64,000 nt of DNA from Verrucomicrobiia bacterium (GTDB taxonomy: Bacteria; Verrucomicrobiota; Verrucomicrobiia; Limisphaerales; UBA11358), in contig DASTWS010000030.1 of NCBI GenBank assembly GCA_035776755.1, forward strand, positions 172,150 to 236,149. Direction: 5' to 3'. Each line of letters starts with the position of its first letter. Position 1 is the stretch's first letter. Positions 2,885 through 48,480 of this stretch are shown one piece after another. Under the pieces are notes generated by a model. It was not told where the DNA came from. It saw only the letters and a list, made by a program, of their open reading frames with translations, and did not search any database. The position numbers were made by a program, and so were the translations under genes.

Positions 2885-4012
2885 ATGAACAAAAATTCTC
2901 TCCTCATTGCAGTCGTTTCGTTGTTTGCGTTTTCCGATATTCCCATCCTTGCCCAGGGCGCACTCACGCCGCCGGGCGCACCCGCGCCGACGATGAAATC
3001 GCTTTCGCAGATCGAACCGCGCACGCCGATTTCGTCCCTGCCCTTCATCATCACCAATTCGGGCTCGTTTTATTTGACGACGAATCTTTATCTTGGCACC
3101 GGCGAAAACGGAATCTCCATCAGTGCGAACGATGTGACGATAGATTTGAATGGATTCACATTGACGGGTTCGCCGGCGGCCGGCAGCGGCAGCGGTATTT
3201 ATGTGGATTATATTCACACGAATATCGTGGTGCGCAACGGCAACCTGGAAGACTGGGGTTTTCGCGGGCTGGAGGCGGAATACACTTACAACAGCCAGTT
3301 CGTTCAACTGCGTGCATCTGGAAACCAGGACGACGGCCTGGACACCGGCATTGATAGCACGGTGATCCAATGCACGGCAGCGAACAATGTTTGGGTGGGA
3401 ATCAATGCGTCGGCAGCATCGTCCGTCCGGAATTGCACGGCCACAGATAATGGCAACAACGGAATCAGCGTCAATGCCGGTTCGGTCGTCTTCGGTTGTG
3501 CCAGCACAGGAAATGGCGGCGGCATTTCCACCGGCACGGGTTGCACCGTCAGCGCGTGTTCCGCAAAACAGAATGGTGGCGACGGTTTTTCGATATCGCA
3601 AAGCACCATCGTAGATTGCACCGCCCAGGGAAATTCTTATCGCGGAATCGTGGCAAGCGATGGAAGCACGGTCAGTCGTTGCACGGCGCGGGTCAATACT
3701 ACGGACGGTATATTGGTAGGAACGGGTTGTCAGGTGAAGGACAACACCTGCCAGCTCAACGGCCACAACGGAACCGGCGCGGGAATCCACGTTTATGGAA
3801 ATGAAAGTCGCATCGAAGGAAATCATCTGGTCAGCAACGATTACGGCATCCTGGTCGACGCCACGAACAACGTCGTGATCAAAAACAGCGCGCAATTGAA
3901 TACCACCAATTACCTGTTCACGGTTCCCCAGGTTATGGGCCCGATCATTAAGACTGCTGACACTTTTGGATTTATCACCAATGAGAACCCGTGGATCAAT
4001 CTTTCCTTTTGA
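2885..4012 (+). CDS. Secreted parallel beta-helix repeat protein, paralog 2
   Basis: Signal peptide, leader ALTPPGAPAPTMKSLSQIEPRTPISSLP, PbH1-like repeats (CTAANN, CTATDN, CSAKQN, CTAQGN). C-terminus NPWINLSF. Confidence 0.8.
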   Translation: MNKNSLLIAVVSLFAFSDIPILAQGALTPPGAPAPTMKSLSQIEPRTPISSLPFIITNSGSFYLTTNLYLGTGENGISISANDVTIDLNGFTLTGSPAAGSGSGIYVDYIHTNIVVRNGNLEDWGFRGLEAEYTYNSQFVQLRASGNQDDGLDTGIDSTVIQCTAANNVWVGINASAASSVRNCTATDNGNNGISVNAGSVVFGCASTGNGGGISTGTGCTVSACSAKQNGGDGFSISQSTIVDCTAQGNSYRGIVASDGSTVSRCTARVNTTDGILVGTGCQVKDNTCQLNGHNGTGAGIHVYGNESRIEGNHLVSNDYGILVDATNNVVIKNSAQLNTTNYLFTVPQVMGPIIKTADTFGFITNENPWINLSF

Positions 4013-4014
4013 TT

Positions 4015-5247
4015 ATGAGAATTTTTATTGCCCCGCTTTTTTCGTCTATTGTCGTTGTTTCGGCATTTGCCCAGGGCAGCCTGACACCGCCGGGCGCGCC
4101 TGCACCGGTGATGAAAACGCTTTCGCAGATCGAGCCGCGCACGCCGATTTCGTCCCTGCCTTACACGATCACGAATCCGGGCTCATATTACGTGACGACA
4201 AACCTCACCGGAATTTCCGGACAAAACGGAGTCACACTCAACGCATCGGATATAACATTGGATTTGAGCGGATTTGAACTGGCCGGCGTTCCGGGCTCGC
4301 TGGCCGGAATCCAGGCTCCGAATGAAGTGACCAATATTTTTATCCACAACGGGACGGTGCGGAATTGGGGCGGCAACGGTTTGGAATTAAATCTGACGCA
4401 TGAATCCAGAGTGGAACATGTTCATGCGCAGCGGAATGGTGGTTTGGGAATCGGGCTGGGCGGCGGCGATCTGGTGGAAAATTGTTCGGCAATTTCCAAT
4501 ACCTTTACCGGCATATCTGCCTTTGGCGTCATCCGCAATTGCGCGGCGATTGGAAATGGATCTGATGGAATCAGCGGGGAAACGTTGCAGTCCTGCATGG
4601 CGGAAGGCAACGGAGGAAATGGCGTTCACAGTTCAATCAGCATCGTGGATTGTTCGGCGGCTTATAATCACCGGGACGGAATTTTGATTGAAAGCGGCGG
4701 TCTCATCAGCCGAAGCGCCGCCCAATTCAACAGTGGCAACGGAATCGAGGCCAGGTTCAGCGACCTGATCCGGGATTGTTCGGCATATAATAACGGGGCC
4801 ACGGGCATCGTTGCGGCCGTTTCGTGCCGGATTGTCAGTTGCGTGATCGAGGGCAACACGATCGGAATTTCCGCGGGCCAGGCCAGCACGGTGAAAGATT
4901 GCACGGTCCGCAACAGCTCCGGGGATGGCATTGTGGTGCCGAATGATTGTGTGGTTCAGGACAATGACTGCGTGGACAACGGCAGCATGGGCGGCGCCGG
5001 CGTCCATGTCACGATTGCTGGCAACCGGATCGAAGGAAACACCACCATCCTGAACTCAAAGGGAATCTGGATAGAAGGCGCCGCGAATATGGTTGTCCGC
5101 AATATTTCACGCTACAACCCGGGCAGCGGTTCTATCGGCAGTTCCAATTTCGTCATCAATGCCGGCAATACTGTCGGGGAAATCCTGAACTTCAGCAGCG
5201 GCGGCACGATCACGAATGCCAATCCGTGGGCAAACTTTTCGTATTAA
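4015..5247 (+). CDS. Secreted parallel beta-helix repeat protein, paralog 3
   Basis: ATG at 4015 lies 3 nt after the paralog-2 stop and gives signal peptide MRIFIAPLFSSIVVVSAFAQG. Same leader (SLTPPGAPAPVMKTLSQIEPRTPISSLP) and C-terminus NPWANFSY. Confidence 0.8.
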   Translation: MRIFIAPLFSSIVVVSAFAQGSLTPPGAPAPVMKTLSQIEPRTPISSLPYTITNPGSYYVTTNLTGISGQNGVTLNASDITLDLSGFELAGVPGSLAGIQAPNEVTNIFIHNGTVRNWGGNGLELNLTHESRVEHVHAQRNGGLGIGLGGGDLVENCSAISNTFTGISAFGVIRNCAAIGNGSDGISGETLQSCMAEGNGGNGVHSSISIVDCSAAYNHRDGILIESGGLISRSAAQFNSGNGIEARFSDLIRDCSAYNNGATGIVAAVSCRIVSCVIEGNTIGISAGQASTVKDCTVRNSSGDGIVVPNDCVVQDNDCVDNGSMGGAGVHVTIAGNRIEGNTTILNSKGIWIEGAANMVVRNISRYNPGSGSIGSSNFVINAGNTVGEILNFSSGGTITNANPWANFSY

Positions 5248-6129: not shown

Positions 6130-7653
6130 TCAGTGCTGAATTAAATGCCGCGCCTGGCGTTTGGGCAATTGCGTGGAATGACGCAGTGTGGCGGATTCTT
6201 CGTCGCTCAAAAATTCGCGCAGGAACGTTGGTTTGTCATTTCGCCCGCCGCGTTGGTAATCGCGCCACAATGTTTCGGCGACAATTTTTGCATCCAAATT
6301 CAATTCCTTCGTCAAAAATTCGAAAAGCCATTCCATCAATTTTGCGAGCGGAATGCTGTCGGTGCGATTCGCGCGCGCAAAAAGCCAATCGCTCAATTGC
6401 ATGAAAGAATGAAATGGTGAATTTTTTTGCCAAATCAGCGGCGTTGTCTCGACAAAATTCCCGCTGTTGCCAATCAAATCCCAATACTTCGCGAAACGTC
6501 GCAGCTTTTGCATCGTCGCGAAATCAATCAATTTGTTTTGCAGGATTTCGTATTTCGGCTGCGGATTATAAATCATCTGCCATGCAACATCATGGCGCGA
6601 GATCGGCGTGCCGCGAAGGCGTTTCAGGATGCCAACCTGGATCTCCTGTGGGCGCAGCGCCACGAGTTTGTCAAAACCGTCCGCGAAACTTTCCACCGTT
6701 TCACCGGGCAATCCGACAATCAGATCCGCGTGAATGTGAACACCGGTCTCGCGTCGCAGAAAATTCAAATTGTCCGCGAGCCGCTCATAATTCTGCCGGC
6801 GACTGATGTTTTGGCCGACTTGCGGATTGAACGTCTGGATGCCAACCTCAAATTGCAGCGAACCGGTCGGAAATTTGGCGATGATTTCGCGCAACGCATC
6901 CGGCAACCGATCTGGAATCATTTCGAAATGATAAAAATTGCCATCACGATGGCGCGCGAGAAAAAATTCCAGAATCGCGCGGCTGGTCGCGATATTCAGA
7001 TTGAACGTCCGGTCAACGAATTTGAATTGCCGCACGCCGCGGTCGAGCAGCTTCTGCATCTCGCCGAGAAATAAATCAATCGGCACGGCGCGAACGGGAA
7101 TATCCAGCGACGATAAACAAAATTCGCACGTGAACGGACAGCCGCGCGAGGCTTCCACGTAAATGATGCGATGCGCGATGTCGCGTGCGTCATAAAATTC
7201 GTAAGGCAATTTAAGCTGCGAAAATTCCGGCAACGGCGCGGGGATAATTTTCTCAGGAAATTCGCCACGCAGAATTTGTTCACACACTTCTGCAAATTTC
7301 AAATCCGCTTCGCCGGTGATGACGTGGTCGGCAAGCCGGACAATTTCCTGCGATTCTGTTTCGTGACTAACTTCCGGCCCACCGAGAACGATTTTGATTT
7401 TGGGACGGACACGTTTGATCGCGGCGGCCACTTCCGTGGCTTCGGAAACATTCCAGATGTAAATGCCCAGCCCGATGATTTTCGGATTTTGCGCGAGCAA
7501 AACTTCCACGATGTCGAGCGGCTTTTGATTGATGTCGAATTCAACAATGCGCGCGCGAGATTGCAATTCACCGAGATTGGCGAACAAATAGCGCAAACCA
7601 AACGCGGCGTGGATGAATTTCGCGTTGAGCGTGGAGAGCACGATGTCCGGCAT
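6130..7653 (-). CDS. B12-binding-domain radical SAM protein (DUF4080-type C-terminus)
   Basis: N-terminal B12-binding-like domain. CxxxCxxC cluster motif (SRGCPFTCEFC). Long C-terminal extension typical of the DUF4080 class. Confidence 0.8.
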   Translation of the reverse strand: MPDIVLSTLNAKFIHAAFGLRYLFANLGELQSRARIVEFDINQKPLDIVEVLLAQNPKIIGLGIYIWNVSEATEVAAAIKRVRPKIKIVLGGPEVSHETESQEIVRLADHVITGEADLKFAEVCEQILRGEFPEKIIPAPLPEFSQLKLPYEFYDARDIAHRIIYVEASRGCPFTCEFCLSSLDIPVRAVPIDLFLGEMQKLLDRGVRQFKFVDRTFNLNIATSRAILEFFLARHRDGNFYHFEMIPDRLPDALREIIAKFPTGSLQFEVGIQTFNPQVGQNISRRQNYERLADNLNFLRRETGVHIHADLIVGLPGETVESFADGFDKLVALRPQEIQVGILKRLRGTPISRHDVAWQMIYNPQPKYEILQNKLIDFATMQKLRRFAKYWDLIGNSGNFVETTPLIWQKNSPFHSFMQLSDWLFARANRTDSIPLAKLMEWLFEFLTKELNLDAKIVAETLWRDYQRGGRNDKPTFLREFLSDEESATLRHSTQLPKRQARHLIQH

Positions 7654-11738: not shown

Positions 11739-12890
11739 ATGCAAGTTGCCGCGCGACAAGACGAATTATCCGAGCAATTTTGGAAAGCATTCCAAGCGCA
11801 TCGCGAACATCCTGAAATCTCTTCGCGCGCGTATCGAGCAAGACGCCGGTTAACTCTAGGAAAGTCGGTTGCCAAAAAAATTCGGATTTATCTCGATACA
11901 CGTTATTGGATTCACGTCAGAGACGCTCGTCAAGGAAAACCAGAGAAACCTGAACACGAACAGATTTACAAACTTTTGCACCAACTTGTTTTAGATGGAA
12001 AAGTTTTATGTCCTGCAAGTTTTCCAGCATTTGACGAACTTCTGAAACACAAAGATAAGCAAGTGCGTCTCGCTTCTGCTGAAACTTTGGATGAATTGAG
12101 CAACCAGGTTTGCTTAATAAATCACATCGAACTTACCCGCGCCGAAATCATGGGATTATTTCGACGATTCACGCCTAACTATCCACTGCCCGCCCCAATG
12201 CTGGAATGTGTTTGGACCAAAGCTGGTTTTTTTTCTGGAGAAATGGTTCCAACAAACAAAACTATTCCGCCAGATTTTGAGCGGGCATTTCAAAAAGCGT
12301 TTGAAGATCAATGGGCACGACTCGAGTTTTCATATATTGTCGAAGGGTATTTTAAATCCAATCGTGAAGAAAATTCTGAAGATTTTGTCCGACAATTAAA
12401 TGACAGCATTTCAAAATTCAGCGCAACCGCAAAAAGTCAGCGTCAACTTTACAAAGCACAATTTCTATCCTTGTTTCAAGAACACAATGATTTAATAGCG
12501 GATGTTATGCGACAACTCTGCAAAGATATATTTGGAAAAACTTTTGAACAATGCACTGATTTCCTTGAGCCGTTATTTGAGCAAGTGTTACAGCGCGCAT
12601 TCTCGCTTAAAGAGACTGCGTTTGATTTGCCAGGAATCCATATTTGGTCGAGCTTGCTTTCCGCTATTGCTTGGGACAAAAGACATCCCTTTACAGCACA
12701 TGATATACACGACGTTATGCACGCACATTCAGCATTACCATATTACAATTATGTTTTCGTCGAGCGCCGATTTAGTCATTTGATGACTACTCCTCCGAAC
12801 AAGTTGGCAGAAACGTATGGAGCAAAAGTTTGTTGGAAGGAAGCTGATGTGATTAAAGAACTGGAATTATTAAATCGAAAATTAAATTAG
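11739..12890 (+). CDS. Hypothetical protein in an AT-richer segment; weak PIN-like termini
   Basis: 383-aa ORF whose body is visibly AT-richer than its neighbours. IRIYLDTRYW near the N-terminus and HDIHDVMHAHSALPYYNYVFVERRF near the C-terminus loosely resemble PIN first and last strands. No firm family. Confidence 0.5.
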   Translation: MQVAARQDELSEQFWKAFQAHREHPEISSRAYRARRRLTLGKSVAKKIRIYLDTRYWIHVRDARQGKPEKPEHEQIYKLLHQLVLDGKVLCPASFPAFDELLKHKDKQVRLASAETLDELSNQVCLINHIELTRAEIMGLFRRFTPNYPLPAPMLECVWTKAGFFSGEMVPTNKTIPPDFERAFQKAFEDQWARLEFSYIVEGYFKSNREENSEDFVRQLNDSISKFSATAKSQRQLYKAQFLSLFQEHNDLIADVMRQLCKDIFGKTFEQCTDFLEPLFEQVLQRAFSLKETAFDLPGIHIWSSLLSAIAWDKRHPFTAHDIHDVMHAHSALPYYNYVFVERRFSHLMTTPPNKLAETYGAKVCWKEADVIKELELLNRKLN

Positions 12891-12893
12891 CAT

Positions 12894-13316
12894 ATGAATG
12901 TAGCTATGATCGAAACCATCCTCCGCTCCACCCTTTCGCAATTCAATTCCGAGACCGGAACGATTCATCGGCTGGATGCAGAAACACAATTATTGCATCT
13001 CGTGGCGCAAATCGGTTTGCCGCCGCAAATGTTGGACGTCATCAAAACCATTCCGGTCGGCAAAGGCATCGCGGGACAGGTCGTCGCGCAAAACCGGCCG
13101 GTGACGATTTGTAATCTGCAAACGGACAACAGCGACGTGGCCAAACCCGGCGCGCGCCAAACCGGCGTGGGCGGCGCGTTGTGCGTGCCGGTTCGCGACG
13201 GCGACAGAATCATCGGCACGCTCGGCGTCGGCACGGTGCGGCAATATGAATTCATTGCGGCGGAAACGGCGAAGCTGGAAGAGATCGGCCGCGAAATTGC
13301 GAAATGTTTAATTTAA
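12894..13316 (+). CDS. Stand-alone GAF domain protein
   Basis: 140 aa with a GAF-like pattern (IHRLD...LHLVAQIGLP...GKGIAGQV...ALCVPVRDGDRIIGTLGVG). Confidence 0.7.
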   Translation: MNVAMIETILRSTLSQFNSETGTIHRLDAETQLLHLVAQIGLPPQMLDVIKTIPVGKGIAGQVVAQNRPVTICNLQTDNSDVAKPGARQTGVGGALCVPVRDGDRIIGTLGVGTVRQYEFIAAETAKLEEIGREIAKCLI

Positions 13317-13391
13317 CCAGAGAGCTGAGTTCCACGCCTGATTTTTGATTTGGGTCTCGCGGAGTTCGACCCTCCGAAATATATTTAGCCC

Positions 13392-14393
13392 ATGGCCATC
13401 GTCATCAAAGATTCCGAATCCAAGCCGAAGGTCACTCTGCCGCCCATCGAGCCGACGAAGAAACTTTCCGTCGCGGACGTTTCGGCCACGGCGCAAAAAG
13501 TCATCGCCAGCGTGGAAAAAGTCATCGTCGGCAAACATGACCAGGTGGCGATGGCGATCGCTATTTTTCTGGCGGAAGGACATTTGCTGTTGGAAGACGT
13601 TCCCGGCGTGGCCAAGACGATGCTGGCCCGGGCGATTGCCTTGAGCGCCGGCTGCACGTTCCGCCGGATCCAATGCACGCCAGACTTGCAGCCGCAGGAC
13701 GTCCTCGGCGAGCCGCGCCTTGACCCGGTGACCGGACGTTCGGAATTTCATTTTGGCCCGTTGTTTTCACAATTCGTTCTCGTGGACGAAATCAACCGTG
13801 CCGCGCCGCGCACGCAATCGGCGTTGCTCGAAGCGATGGGCGAAAGCATGGTCACGGCGGGAAATGTGAGCTATAAATTGCAGCGGCCGTTCATGGTCAT
13901 CGCCACGCAAAACCCCATTGAACAGGAAGGAACGTTTCTGCTGCCGGAAGCGCAAAAAGACCGTTTTCTGATGCGCATGAATTTGGGTTATCCCTCGCTC
14001 GCGGACGAAAAGGAAATGGTCGAACGATTTCAATTGCGCCATCCGATTGAAACGCTTCAGCCGGTCACAACGCCGGACGCCATCACGAAATGCCAGGAAG
14101 CCGTGCGTGAAGTGAAAGTGCCCGCGGCCGCAAGCGATTGCATTTTGAAAATCGTCCGCGCCACGCGGGAGCATCCCGCCCTGCTTCTGGGCGCCAGCCC
14201 GCGCGGTTCGCTCGGATTGTTTCGCGCATCGCAAGCGGTCGCGGCAATTGAGGGAAAAGATTCCGTCTCCGTAGAACTCATCAAATCGCTGGCGCAAAAA
14301 GTTCTGGCGCACCGGCTCATTGTCCGCAAAGAAGAAAAGTTCCGAAATATCAATATCGCGGATGTCGTCGCGGAAGTGGCAGCGAAGGCTTGA
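13392..14393 (+). CDS. MoxR-family AAA+ ATPase
   Basis: HLLLEDVPGVAKT Walker A region, VLVDEINRA Walker B, 333 aa. No adjacent DUF58/VWA partner. Confidence 0.85.
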   Translation: MAIVIKDSESKPKVTLPPIEPTKKLSVADVSATAQKVIASVEKVIVGKHDQVAMAIAIFLAEGHLLLEDVPGVAKTMLARAIALSAGCTFRRIQCTPDLQPQDVLGEPRLDPVTGRSEFHFGPLFSQFVLVDEINRAAPRTQSALLEAMGESMVTAGNVSYKLQRPFMVIATQNPIEQEGTFLLPEAQKDRFLMRMNLGYPSLADEKEMVERFQLRHPIETLQPVTTPDAITKCQEAVREVKVPAAASDCILKIVRATREHPALLLGASPRGSLGLFRASQAVAAIEGKDSVSVELIKSLAQKVLAHRLIVRKEEKFRNINIADVVAEVAAKA

Positions 14394-29855: not shown

Positions 29856-32800
29856 TTGAACTCAACCATGCCGGACAAAATCGGACATCTTCAAAAATTA
29901 CTGGGCGAACGCATCGTCACCATCGACGGCGCGATGGGCACAATGATTCAGCAACGCAAGCTCACGGAAAAAGATTATCGCGGCACGAAATTCGACGGTT
30001 GGGGCGGGAAAGATTTGAAGGGCTTGAATGATTTGCTCAACGTCACGCAACCGGAAATCATCGAGGATATTCATCGCCAATATCTCGAAGCCGGCGCAGA
30101 CATCATCGAAACCAACACCTTCAATTCACAAAGCATTTCGCTGGCGGATTATGGAATGGAATCGCTTGCGTATGAATTGAGCAAAGCCGGCGCGGAATGC
30201 GCGCGGCGTGCCGTCGAGAATTTTCAAAAGCAAACCGGGAAAATCGGTTTTGTTGCCGGTTCCATCGGGCCGACGACGAAAACGTCTTCCATTTCCACCG
30301 ACGTTCACAATCCCGGCGCGCGTGGAACAAATTACGATGAATTGGTCGTCGCGTATTCCGAACAAATCAACGGCCTGCTCGACGGCGGCGCGGATCTGCT
30401 TTTGGTCGAAACGATTTTCGACACGCTCAACGCCCGCGCGGCGTTCTTTGCGATTGAGAAAATTTTTGATGAACGCGGCATTTCTCCCCTGCCCTTTCGG
30501 AGGGCGGAGTTCGACGACGCCCAAAATATAAATTCAACTTCAGGGTTTCGCGGAACTCAACCCTCCGAAAAGAAAATTGTTCCGGTTTCCGCCAGCGTCA
30601 CGTTTATCCAGGCCGGCAGCAATCGCGGCGTGACCGGCCAAACGGTCGAAGCCTTTTGGAATTCCATTTCCAATGTTCCACTGCTGTCCGTCGGGATGAA
30701 TTGCGCGCTCGGACCGAAGGAATTGCGCCCGCTCATCGAGGAACTTTCCAACATCGCGCCGGTTTACGTCAGCGCATATCCGAACGCCGGGTTGCCGAAT
30801 CCGCTATTGCCGACGGGTTTTCCCGAAACTCCGGAATCGCTGGCGCCTCAATTACGCGAATGGGCGCAGGCCGGCTGGCTCAATATCGTCGGCGGATGTT
30901 GCGGAACAACTCCGCCGCACATCAAAGCGATTGCCGAAGCGGTGAAAGGTTTGCCGCCGCGCAAAGTTCCGACGGTTGAACCGTATTTGCGTTTGAGCGG
31001 ATTGGATGCGCTCACAGTCCGGCCCGATTCCAATTTCCTCAACATCGGCGAACGCACCAACGTCGCCGGTTCGCCGAAATTCGCGCAACTCATCAAGGCG
31101 AACGATTATGAAGCCGCGCTTACCATCGCCCGACAGCAGGTCGAAAACGGAGCGCAGGTCATTGACGTTTGCATGGACGAAGGGATGATTGACGGCGTCG
31201 CCGCGATGGTGAAATTTCTAAATCTTGTCGCGAGCGAGCCGGACATTTGCAAAGTGCCTGTGATGGTGGATTCCTCGAAATGGGATGTCATTGAAGCCGG
31301 GTTGAAATGTCTCCAGGGCAAAGGCATTGTTAATTCCATTTCACTTAAAGAAGGCGAAGAGAAATTTTTGCAACAAGCAAAACTCGTCCGCCGCTACGGC
31401 GCGGCGGTCGTCGTGATGGCTTTTGATGAACGCGGTCAGGCGGATAATTTTGAGCGGCGAATCGAAGTTTGCAAACGCGCTTACGATTTACTCGTTCAAA
31501 GAGTCGGCTTTCCGCCGCAGGACATCATTTTCGATCCAAACGTCTTGACCGTCGGCACGGGGATGGAAGAGCACGCGAATTATGCCGTGGATTTCATTCG
31601 CGCGACGAAGTGGATCAAAGAGAATCTGCCGCACGCAAAAGTCAGCGGCGGCATCAGCAATGTTTCGTTTTCATTTCGCGGCAACAATGTCGTTCGCGAA
31701 GCGATGCACTCGGCGTTTTTGTATCACGCCATCAAAGCTGGGCTCGATATGGGCATCGTCAACGCGGGACAGCTCGCGGTTTATGACGAAGTTCCGAAGG
31801 ACTTGCTTGCGTTGGTCGAAGACGTTCTGCTGAATCGCAAACCCGAGGCGACCGAGCGCCTGATTAAATTTGCCGAATCGGTGAAACAAAAAGGCAAAGC
31901 GGAAGTCGTTGAAGATGAATGGCGCAAAGGCACGATTGAAGAACGGCTCTCTCATGCGCTGGTTAAAGGCATCGTTGATTTCATCGAACAGGATGCGGAG
32001 GAAGCGCGGCAAAAATACGGGAGGCCATTGCTCGTCATCGAAGGGCCGCTCATGGCCGGTATGAACGTCGTCGGCGATCTGTTCGGCGCGGGCAAAATGT
32101 TTTTGCCGCAGGTCGTCAAATCGGCGCGCGTGATGAAAAAAGCGGTCGCCTATTTGCAACCGTTTATGGAAAAAGAAAAGCAGGCCGCGGTTGCTGCCGG
32201 CGGAACCGCCAAGCCGCAGGGAAAAATTTTGCTCGCGACGGTGAAAGGCGACGTTCACGACATCGGCAAGAACATCGTCGGCGTCGTGCTTGCGTGTAAC
32301 AATTATGAAGTCATTGACCTCGGCGTGATGGTTCCGTGCGATAAAATTCTCACGACGGCACGCGAAACAAAAGCCGACATCATCGGCTTGAGCGGATTGA
32401 TCACGCCGTCGTTGGATGAAATGGTCCATGTCGCGCGCGAAATGGAACGCGAAGGATTGAAATTGCCGCTACTCATTGGCGGCGCGACGACGAGCAAAGC
32501 GCACACGGCGGTAAAAATTGCGCCGGGCTACGGCGAACCGGTCGTCCATGTCATTGACGCCAGCCGCGCCGTGCCGATTGTCAGCAATTTGATCAGCGCG
32601 GAACATAAACCGAAATTCGCGGGAGAAATTCGAGATGAATATGAGCGCATCCGTTCGCAACATGCCGGACCGAAAGCAAAATTGATTTCAATCGAAGATG
32701 CCCGCGCTAACGCGCCGAAATTGAAATTCGATGATTTGCCAAAACCGGAATTCGTCGGCAAACGGACAATTGAGCCGTCACTGGAAGAATTGGCGAACTT

Positions 32801-33692
32801 CATTGATTGGACGCCGTTTTTTCACACGTGGGAATTGCGCGGCGTTTATCCGAAAATTTTGCATCATGAAAAGCATGGCGAAGAAGCCAAAAAACTTTTT
32901 GCGGACGCGCAAACGCTTTTGGAAAAAATTGTTGCCGGCAAATTGCTTCAGCCAAAAGGCATTTACGGATTTTATCCAGCGAATCGCGTTGGCGATGACG
33001 TGGAGCTTTACGCCGATGAATCGCGAAAGAATGTTTTGACGACGTTTCATTTCCTGCGCCAACAGATCGCCAAAGATGATGGCACGCCGAATTGGTCATT
33101 GGCAGATTTCGTCGCATCCAAAAACTCGGCGGATCACCTCGGCGCCTTTGCCGTCACGAGCGGACACGGTTTGCGCGAGCTGATTGAGAAATTCAAAGCG
33201 GACCACGACGATTACAACGCCATCATGGCCGAAGCGCTGGCGGACCGGTTGGCGGAAGGGTTCGCGGAATTTCTGCATAAACGCGTTCGCGATGAATGGG
33301 GTTATGGCAAAGCTGAAAATTTATCGCCGGAAGATTTGATTCGCGAAAAATATCGCGGCATCCGCCCGGCGGCCGGCTATCCGGCGTGCCCGGATCACAC
33401 GGAAAAGCGGATTCTCTGGCAATTGCTGGACGTCGAGAAAAAGGCCGGCATTCAATTGACGGAAAGTTGCGCGATGTGGCCGGGCAGTTCGGTGAGCGGA
33501 CTTTATTTCGCGCATCCGGATTCAAAATATTTCGCGGTTGGCAAATTGGATCGCGACCAGATTTTGGATTATCACGTTCGCAAAGGAATGACGGTAGCGG
33601 AAGTCGAACGTTGGCTCGGGCCGTATTTGAATTATGATCCGGCCAAAACGGCCGGCACAAAAATTGGTTGCGCTTGCGGCCGGGAGCATTGA
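29856..33692 (+). CDS. metH: Cobalamin-dependent methionine synthase
   Basis: Collinear similarity to E. coli MetH as I recall it, across the Hcy, pterin, cap/B12 ([11 protein letters not shown]) and AdoMet-activation domains. Likely start is the ATG at 29868. Contains an extra insert of about 30 aa (see findings). Confidence 0.95.
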
Positions 33693-47599: not shown

Positions 47600-48480
47600 A
47601 TTTCTAAAAACATTAAGTCCCCGCCCAACCTTTCGGTTGAGCAGGGACAAATGGGGAATGGGAGTTCGTCACTCTCTCTTTCCCGAACCGGCATTAGACG
47701 CGCGCCTCTCGGCGGCTGCCGGATTCCCGACGCCATTCTCCACGGCAAGCGGAGTTTCGGCCTCGTGGCAGGGCCGTCCAGCGCCTTTCGGTCGCTGAAT
47801 TTCGAGTGAGGCTTTTCGGCTCGCTTCAACCGATGGTTGCGCCACCGGTCTGCAAACCAGGTCAAGACACGCCTGCGATTTCTTCTTTCGCGTCTTGGCC
47901 GCTTGGCTTCGGGTCAGCCGCTGATTTTGTCAGCGCGTTCGCCCACAGCCACGGGTCTCGCCTCTTCACTCATAGATTGCTTTTTGCCGCAGTCCAGCGG
48001 TGCCGTTTTTAACATCGCCGGCCTTTGGAAGGTTTTTCACGCGACTTGCCCGGTCATCGTGGCCTTCCCGTTGCAGTTTCTCTTTTTGTCCGCCTTTCGG
48101 CGTTTTTCGTTTGGCGAACTCAACGTTTTAATTTTGAATCCAGCCGAGATACCTGCACCGTGCTGATCCGCAGTAGCAACCGTTTGCCTGTTTTCGGCAA
48201 CTGCGATTCATCCAGGCTCGAAACCTGCCTGAACTACTTGACTCAATTCGGAACGGTTTCTAATCGCTCCTCATCGCGCGGCTCCGTCTTTCGCATTACT
48301 GACACGTGCGAGCGTGCCAGAGGAACCGGTGAATCTTGCCTCCGCCACCTGCCTTTCGGCCGGTTTTAGAGGAGCCGGATGAATCAGCCTCATCCAACTT
48401 TTCCCCAGTTACCTGGGATTATCCCGGAAACGTTCAGCTTCAATCTTTCGACCGCCACTGCCCGTTTCGTTCATTCATTG
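47600..48480 (-). ncRNA. Candidate large structured RNA, class unknown (boundaries approximate)
   Basis: No credible ORF on either strand. On the minus strand there are multiple GNRA-capped hairpins (47617-47648, 47703-47714, 47779-47797, 48091-48102, 48347-48364). Other helices lie at 47828-47840, 47919-47935, 48027-32/48064-69 and 48377-48395. Helix 47863-70/47890-97 needs a G.U pair that is legal only on the minus strand. Confidence 0.4.

Follow-up and report, generated by a model that had tools for sequence, protein, structure and literature searches.

The DNA analysed here is a 64,000-nt stretch from a Verrucomicrobiia bacterium (the window; positions given without a locus name refer to it), and the subject is a short insert in its metH gene, which codes for cobalamin-dependent methionine synthase. 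An earlier note made from the sequence alone had described this insert as an in-frame element with long inverted repeats and compared it to the palindromic elements of Rickettsia. We conclude, with a probability of about 0.82, that the insert is one copy of a small mobile element, a non-autonomous repeat of the repetitive extragenic palindrome (REP) type, and is translated in MetH as a tolerated passenger. The interpretation of the earlier note was largely right and is refined here to a doublet of two inverted REP units, similar to the REP doublets forming hairpins (REPINs), from a family which we call family A. The REP/REPIN classification rests on a link between the family and a REP-associated tyrosine transposase (RAYT). 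The features are collected in Table 1; L and P numbers are our own handles for loci and proteins.

The host gene is intact. Its product, counted from the ATG at 29868, has 1274 residues, and the open reading frame (ORF) itself opens at a TTG at 29856. Five Pfam domains (S-methyl_trans, Pterin_bind, B12-binding_2, B12-binding and Met_synt_B12) are found in the ORF, and the complete MetH architecture of homocysteine (Hcy), pterin, cap, B12 and activation domains is thus present within a single reading frame which the insert leaves undisturbed. The nearest homologues are MetH proteins of Limisphaerales/Verrucomicrobiota with an identity of up to 85%. The 30 extra residues that had been placed after ERGIS are present and follow ...FDERGIS in the translation. 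The segment is absent from non-verrucomicrobial MetH homologues, and structure alignments with human, Thermus and Thermotoga MetH stop at the insert, leaving ~31 residues unmatched; the alignments of human 4CCZ and 9SSP and of Thermus 8SSC and 9CBP cover its flanks on either side but do not run through it. The AlphaFold2 model of residues 1-411 has a mean pLDDT (predicted local distance difference test) of 82, and in agreement with the surface loop envisaged in the earlier note the insert region (~residues 205-237) is a low-confidence segment (pLDDT ~51) between helix 186-203 and strand 240-245. A loop that connects a helix of a (beta/alpha)8 barrel with the following strand is found on the side opposite to the catalytic strand ends, and for this reason the insert is predicted to be a surface loop of the homocysteine-binding barrel, away from the active site. 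Measured against the short loop found in close relatives (PLPYGAKVEAGKKI), metH has gained ~17 codons net, and therefore the insertion replaced, or came with the loss of, ~24 nt of the original loop.

The basic unit of the element is ~26 nt long: TCGGA forms its 5' tag, and a ~21-nt stem-loop, GGGNN-GA-GY-NNN-RC-GA-NNCCC, comes after it. Two such units, in many cases different variants, stand head to head and together make up the long inverted repeat. Within the ~90-nt insert that had been noticed, which stands as an insert, the element proper takes up 78 nt. Its arms are 28 nt long (30495-30522 and 30543-30570), are 79% complementary and enclose a 20-nt AT-rich spacer; the inverted repeat first recognised (30495-30512 and 30553-30570, matching at 16 of 18 positions) is real and forms part of these longer arms. 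The left unit has all 7 of its 7 canonical pairs intact and carries the tandem G.A in the stem. In the right unit, which is slightly decayed, one pair is broken, and three transitions separate it from the sub-family copy in L146 (L146 and L151 were compared). The RNA fold of the element region has an energy of -39.2 kcal/mol (z = -3.7). The tag holds a Shine-Dalgarno-like GGAGG (30498-30504) and the partner arm holds CCUCC, the anti-Shine-Dalgarno core (30561-30567); judged from the sequence, an internal Shine-Dalgarno-like site in intragenic copies would be masked by the hairpin.

Table 1. Coordinates and content of the features discussed in the text (positions in the window unless a locus is named).
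Feature	Position	Strand	Content or basis
metH, cobalamin-dependent methionine synthase, host gene, intact	29868..33692	+	ORF list and translation
30 codons without counterpart in MetH outside Verrucomicrobiota	30487..30576	+	protein alignment, PDB alignments, AlphaFold model
Family-A REP doublet (REPIN-like), two inverted units around a spacer, in the metH frame	30494..30571		covariance model R1, inverted repeat
Left unit	30497..30522	+	tag TCGGA and stem-loop GGGCG-GA-GT-TCG-AC-GA-CGCCC; unit pattern, 0 mismatches
AT-rich spacer between units, 20 nt	30523..30542		inverted-repeat analysis
Right unit, inverted	30543..30568	-	GGGTTTCGCGGAACTCAACCC and TCCGA; unit pattern match
Second family-A copy, decayed, intergenic	13314..13380		model R1, unit match, ORF map
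metH loop content, family A			TCGGA-tagged doublet
metH loop content, family B			GTAG-GACAGGCG-TCG-CGCCTGTC doublet
metH loop content, family C			GTAG-tagged doublet of two different units
metH loop content, L008 only			GC-rich multi-hairpin element
metH loop content, other loci			hexamer or heptamer tandem repeats
metH break site, L001	~12140-12200
metH break site, L002	11593-13250
metH break site, L202	~2230-2320
metH break site, L205	~2160-2720

The structure of the family was analysed with a covariance model (R1) and an alignment (A1) of 119 copies from other genomes, from which one metH copy (L167) was excluded. Within the units 95% of the pairs are formed, compared to 84.4% in shuffled alignments, and the covariation score is 0.322 compared to 0.119, the higher value being reached in 0 of 500 shuffles. 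One of the covarying positions occurs as AU, GC, CG and UA, another as CG and GC, and another as UA and CG. The pairing between the two arms of the same 119 copies is no better than in the shuffles (86.9% vs 86.2%) and shows no covariation, which rules out the long hairpin as the selected structure. Because the pairs within an arm covary and the pairs between arms do not, the functional unit is taken to be the ~21-nt stem-loop. The spacers in A1 are ~10-35 nt and are conserved across the family neither in length nor in sequence. The TCGGA tag is invariant in the alignment, in part since the search pattern demanded it.

The metH copy matches model R1 with 67 bits (E 1.2e-12, model positions 1-78), and the window contains one further copy, which is matched over the full model length with 33 bits (E 5e-5). 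Its right unit (13352-13377; unit match with 1 mismatch) is well preserved, and the similarity at 13359-13379 pointed out in the earlier note belongs to it. This second copy is situated between two ORFs that point in the same direction, 12894-13316 and 13392-14393. It reaches into the stop codon of the first and ends 12 nt short of the ATG of the second; the end with CCUCC is thus close to this start codon, on its upstream side.

Outside the source genome the family was sought with the two-arm pattern TCGGAGGGNNGAG-N30-60-CTCNNCCCTCCGA in one genome per species of bacteria and archaea. This strict pattern gave at least 119 stretches where, by our estimate, ~1 would be expected by chance, and nearly all of those listed come from metagenome-assembled genomes (MAGs) of Verrucomicrobiota/Limisphaerales from peat, bog and soil. 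Related genomes hold several copies each, with at least 4-6 loci per MAG, and the source genome holds 2 within the 64 kb of the window. The dispersed family that had been hinted at therefore exists, and the palindrome is present also in orthologous metH copies. A quite different explanation would be that the inverted repeat arose by chance in a lineage-specific, fast-evolving loop with no mobile element being involved. The loop is indeed hypervariable in Verrucomicrobia, and the earlier note had estimated that about one inverted repeat of this quality could arise in 64 kb. The 18-mer of the inverted repeat, with at most 3 mismatches, is, however, found 3 times in the window where 0.06 are expected, and the match to the covariance model (E ~1e-12), the at least 119 copies elsewhere, the second copy in the window and the association with RAYT genes described below together refute a chance origin, to which we assign practically no weight.

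A subset of the family-A doublets sits in a larger repeat of ~150 bp with conserved flanks of ~35 nt (caaaacaatttctcg ... tacttttgagacagt); this composite repeat is found in L103, L116, L166, L175, L178 (around 1430-1585), L101, L139, L152, L196 and others. A transposase was sought beside the copies with conserved 35-nt flanks; none adjoins them, and only the ~150-bp composite repeat was found.

The association with a transposase is seen at L151 and L147. In L151 the ORF 2488-2983, which adjoins family-A copies, encodes a protein of 164 residues with HLH and Y...NP motifs and matches NCBIfam NF047646, REP-associated tyrosine transposase, with 85.8 bits (cutoff 80). Family-A doublets lie on either side of the gene (2413-2487 and 3027-3097), with one unit in addition, and these doublets are of the CGGAG/GACGCCC sub-family, the one to which the metH copy of the window belongs. 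The RAYT of L147 (1730-2212, minus strand) is 63% identical to that of L151 and is flanked by a doublet and, on the opposite side, by four units. The four units form an array (1566-1711) directly beside the gene, three of them direct and one inverted, with the tag relaxed to TCGGAAGG and in one unit to TTGGAAGG. RAYT genes and their REPs are usually arranged in this way, with units at the flanks of the gene, and the array in L147 suggests that single units, besides doublets, are substrates or products.

No target-site duplication of 3 nt or more was detected in the 122 listed copies: duplications of 3, 4 and 5 nt were seen 3, 0 and 0 times where 1.9, 0.5 and 0.1 are expected. Nor do the flanks of the copies contain an insertion target motif: only a T at -1 and -2 stands out, and it probably belongs to the unit. 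Because target-site duplications are missing, single-strand transposition of the HUH/Y1 type fits the family, and a MITE (miniature inverted-repeat transposable element) of the DDE type is disfavoured. A classical MITE would have arisen from an insertion sequence by deletion, have terminal inverted repeats and depend for its movement on a DDE transposase acting in trans, and two inverted arms of ~28 nt around a non-conserved core would suit this description, as would the inclusion of a subset of copies in the larger conserved repeat. On the other hand both arms form covarying stem-loops of their own, a property not required of terminal inverted repeats, single units and arrays exist (L147 1566-1711), and the only transposase found beside units is the RAYT, in two genomes. 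We therefore regard a MITE as improbable. The bacterial MITEs (Correia/NEMIS, ERIC, Nezha and others; PMC10969869) resemble family A in being small, non-autonomous and hairpin-forming and in being found occasionally in frame in ORFs; they differ in having terminal inverted repeats and target-site duplications and in their origin from DDE insertion sequences, whereas family A has self-pairing units, no target-site duplication and a RAYT as the associated enzyme.

For the REP doublet in metH the following course of events may be envisaged by analogy with IS200/IS605 and with the E. coli/Pseudomonas REP/RAYT work summarised in PMC3733652. A RAYT of the HUH/Y1 type, encoded elsewhere in the genome, would recognise the unit hairpin in single-stranded DNA and move or copy doublets without making target-site duplications. 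One doublet would have landed in the helix-strand loop of the homocysteine barrel of MetH, on the face away from the catalytic end. This copy would have survived since the frame was kept, that frame contained no stop codon and the loop tolerated extra residues. The insert would by now merely be translated as a surface segment of ~26 residues, probably disordered, while the DNA slowly decays. It appears to be a neutral passenger, with no sign of a function in MetH.

In its residence inside a gene the metH copy has much company. In 64 of the 122 listed copies the open frame extends 150 nt or more in each direction, and in 45 it extends 300 nt or more in each direction, these copies lying deep inside long ORFs. 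The intragenic copies use all three frames, with the entry peptides SEGRVTRVP, FGGTSYTSP or FRRDELHES and the exit peptides GTRVTRPSE, DSQSSSLRK or GLAELAPPN depending on the frame. All host ORFs tested (20/20) are conserved genes with Pfam domains; the hosts include Mfd, PrmC, PrmA, AroB, IleRS, ArgRS, LigA, GlnE, ThiD and Dus, and further PurM-like proteins, aminotransferases, a U32 peptidase and an MmeI-type enzyme. Insertions in LigA, IleRS, PrmC, U32, PurM and Mfd are common to orthologues of different species. Some genes carry several families in frame: the U32 peptidase ORF of L097 (5682-8000, minus strand) has a family-A copy at 7406-7472, a GTAG doublet of family B at 7088-7154 and family C at 6374-6421, and the Mfd ORF of L115 (2239-5952, minus strand) has family A at 4997-5067 and family B at 4445-4524.

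The intact frames also bear on the possibility that the insert is removed before or during protein synthesis, like an intron or intein or by translational bypass, and is missing from mature MetH. A strong hairpin in a coding region does recall bypass elements. Yet every metH orthologue and 45 further host genes keep the frame and have no stops, which would be needless if the segment were skipped; searched at gathering thresholds, Rfam gives no match at the insert to an intron or any other RNA family, and the segment is too short for an intein. Removal is in our opinion very improbable, less probable even than a MITE.

The loop of metH which holds the element is occupied in different ways in related genomes (Table 1). 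Its short basal form in Verrucomicrobia is PLPYGAKVEAGKK, and in close relatives (L006 and the PYGAKVEAGKK group) the loop is short and lacks a hairpin. At the same position in L004 the DNA hairpin is nearly perfect (-59.6 kcal/mol), in L002 it is good, and in L001 its right arm is decayed. Families B and C, which also occupy the loop, are found at loci unrelated to metH as well. Tandem repeats stand in place of hairpins in L003 (1747-1875), L005 and L025 and in L010 (2574-2705) and L011. One type of repeat consists of AGAAGN hexamers coding for the peptide SEVGSQKAEGRSR, the other of four CCGCAAT heptamers, which at 28 nt are not a multiple of 3 and still leave the frame intact; the heptamer array also occurs elsewhere (L010 736-756, L128 and L199).

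MetH proteins whose N-terminal domains are 95-97% identical outside the loop carry family C (P0005), family A (P0025), family B (P0020 and P0027) or family A together with a tandem repeat (P0003), so that four different contents occupy the same ~20-nt interval in near-identical proteins. A neighbour-joining tree and the pairwise identities show A, B, C and D interleaved among these proteins, which rules out a single ancient insertion of family A followed by vertical inheritance as the sole history. The family-A copies of the window and of L004 differ at covarying stem positions, and this difference in sequence indicates that different sub-families of family A sit at the same metH junction in the two.

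This recurrence of hairpins could be taken to mean that they are retained in metH for a role at the RNA or DNA level, any stable hairpin at the site being selected; a translational pause between barrel segments, a site for mRNA stability or processing, or internal GGAGG/CCUCC pairing modulating ribosome traffic are among the conceivable roles. Several unrelated hairpin families in exactly this loop in close relatives, and a Shine-Dalgarno-like GGAGG in the tag which is paired with CCUCC in the fold, would be in accord with such a role. It is difficult to reconcile with close relatives whose loop is short and hairpin-free or filled with simple tandem repeats, with the decay of the copies in the window (79% complementarity) and in L001 (degraded right arm), with the lack of inter-arm covariation across the family, and with the presence of the same elements in many unrelated genes in all three frames. 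We consider such a role about as improbable as a MITE.

A second site in metH, the linker between the Hcy and pterin domains, is used in a similar way. L009 has a second family-B copy here (3960-4064), the linkers of L007, L008, L205 and L202 contain other repeat-derived peptides, for instance ALSPGERENRRQ and GARETAPGAGALP, and the family-B doublet in the linker of L205 contains an in-frame stop. That the helix-strand loop and this linker are true insertion hot spots, beyond mere permissiveness, is possible, though we would sooner doubt it. The turnover at the loop could come about if REP doublets were preferentially integrated into, or exchanged with, resident REP hairpins. If true this would mean that RAYTs bring about REP-into-REP homing, or that hairpins direct integration at the replication fork, and essential genes would hold self-renewing nests of selfish DNA. 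In L001, L002, L202 and L205 metH is divided into two to four ORFs. A splitting of the gene by the elements was considered and rejected, since the breaks are single-base frameshifts, some of them in homopolymers; they are most likely sequencing errors and not gene fission, and the naming of the contigs suggests long-read assemblies.

REPs have been sorted into super-families tagged by GTAG and by CGTC (Di Nocera et al., 2013, PMC3733652). According to the same study intragenic REPs are most numerous in Opitutus terrae, a member of the Verrucomicrobia, where the intragenic dimers belong to the GTAG super-family, and in R. conorii, where they are the Rickettsia palindromic elements (RPEs) RPE-4 and RPE-6, which have the CGTC tag and no associated transposase. 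The intragenic dimers encode 20-30 residues, their hosts include DNA ligase, helicases and tRNA synthetases, and different REPs are found at about the same recB site in two Xanthomonas species (PMC3733652). Family A resembles the REP/REPIN-RAYT systems in having a short stem-loop unit, often in two variants, which forms inverted doublets with variable spacers, in its copies, which are dispersed in related genomes and lack target-site duplications, in the RAYT flanked by units, and in its intragenic dimers encoding 20-30 residues in housekeeping genes such as those for DNA ligase and tRNA synthetases. It differs from them by the conserved tandem G.A in the stem and by its hosts, which are uncultured Limisphaerales from peat and soil.

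The elements RPE-1 to RPE-8 (Ogata et al., 2000), in so far as they are described in PMC3733652, resemble family A: they are palindromic, have entered conserved genes without breaking the frame, add surface segments to the translated proteins, and have copies in coding as well as in intergenic DNA. They come from another phylum, family A being from Verrucomicrobiota and not from Rickettsia, and RPE-1 is longer, ~100-150 bp. RPE-4 and RPE-6 are set apart from family A by their description, CGTC tag and no transposase against TCGGA tag and flanked RAYT (PMC3733652); within family A CGTC appears only in the stem of the A variant (CTCGTCCC), the other variants having CGCC, CCGC or CGGC. The likeness to the Rickettsia elements proposed in the earlier note holds for the in-frame behaviour in conserved genes; the element is a REPIN-like REP doublet which behaves like an RPE, without being placed here in any RPE family.

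Several points weigh against our conclusion. The 5' tag of family A, TCGGA(GGG), is not the GTAG typical of RAYT-associated REPs, and at the same metH site in relatives it is families B and C, not family A, which carry GTAG. The share of intragenic copies, ~37-52% of those listed, is in contrast to the mainly extragenic position of typical REPs; it should be noted that with the strict pattern this share and the copy numbers are rough and skewed to well-preserved copies. The covariation at the unit level may be inflated in part by sub-family structure. The link to RAYTs rests on two loci in related genomes, and the L151 protein has no match in Pfam and is recognised by NCBIfam alone, just over the cutoff. 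A tblastn search found no RAYT gene in the 64-kb window, and the mobilising enzyme of the source genome was thus not seen. Finally, the translation of the insert is inferred from the conservation of the frame.

The phenomenon as such is already known, from Rickettsia in 2000 and from Opitutus terrae and others in 2013, and the conceptual gain is modest. An odd insert of 30 residues in an essential enzyme is explained as selfish DNA and not as a functional adaptation, which is of relevance for the annotation of verrucomicrobial proteins and for structure or alignment work on them. We believe that family A is an undescribed RAYT-associated REP family, characterised by the TCGGA tag and the tandem G.A stem, which is widespread in uncultured Limisphaerales. 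An unusually large share of its copies is intragenic and in frame, so that the family might serve as a natural system for studying how proteins tolerate random loop insertions, and the recurrence of REP families at one metH loop in near-identical proteins offers a way to test targeted REP/RAYT insertion. This turnover at the hot spot is the part most worth further study.

Two observations on the rest of the window may be added. The stretch 13352-13379 (CGGAG TTCGACC CTCCG) was considered as a tRNA T-arm or the remnant of an attachment site; this was ruled out, the stretch being a family-A unit, and ARAGORN finds no tRNA or tmRNA in the 64 kb. The only Rfam family matched in the window is the MISL RNA (RF03079) at 47661-48424 on the minus strand, with 559.6 bits against a gathering score of 274.6 and covering positions 1-751 of the 751 in the model.

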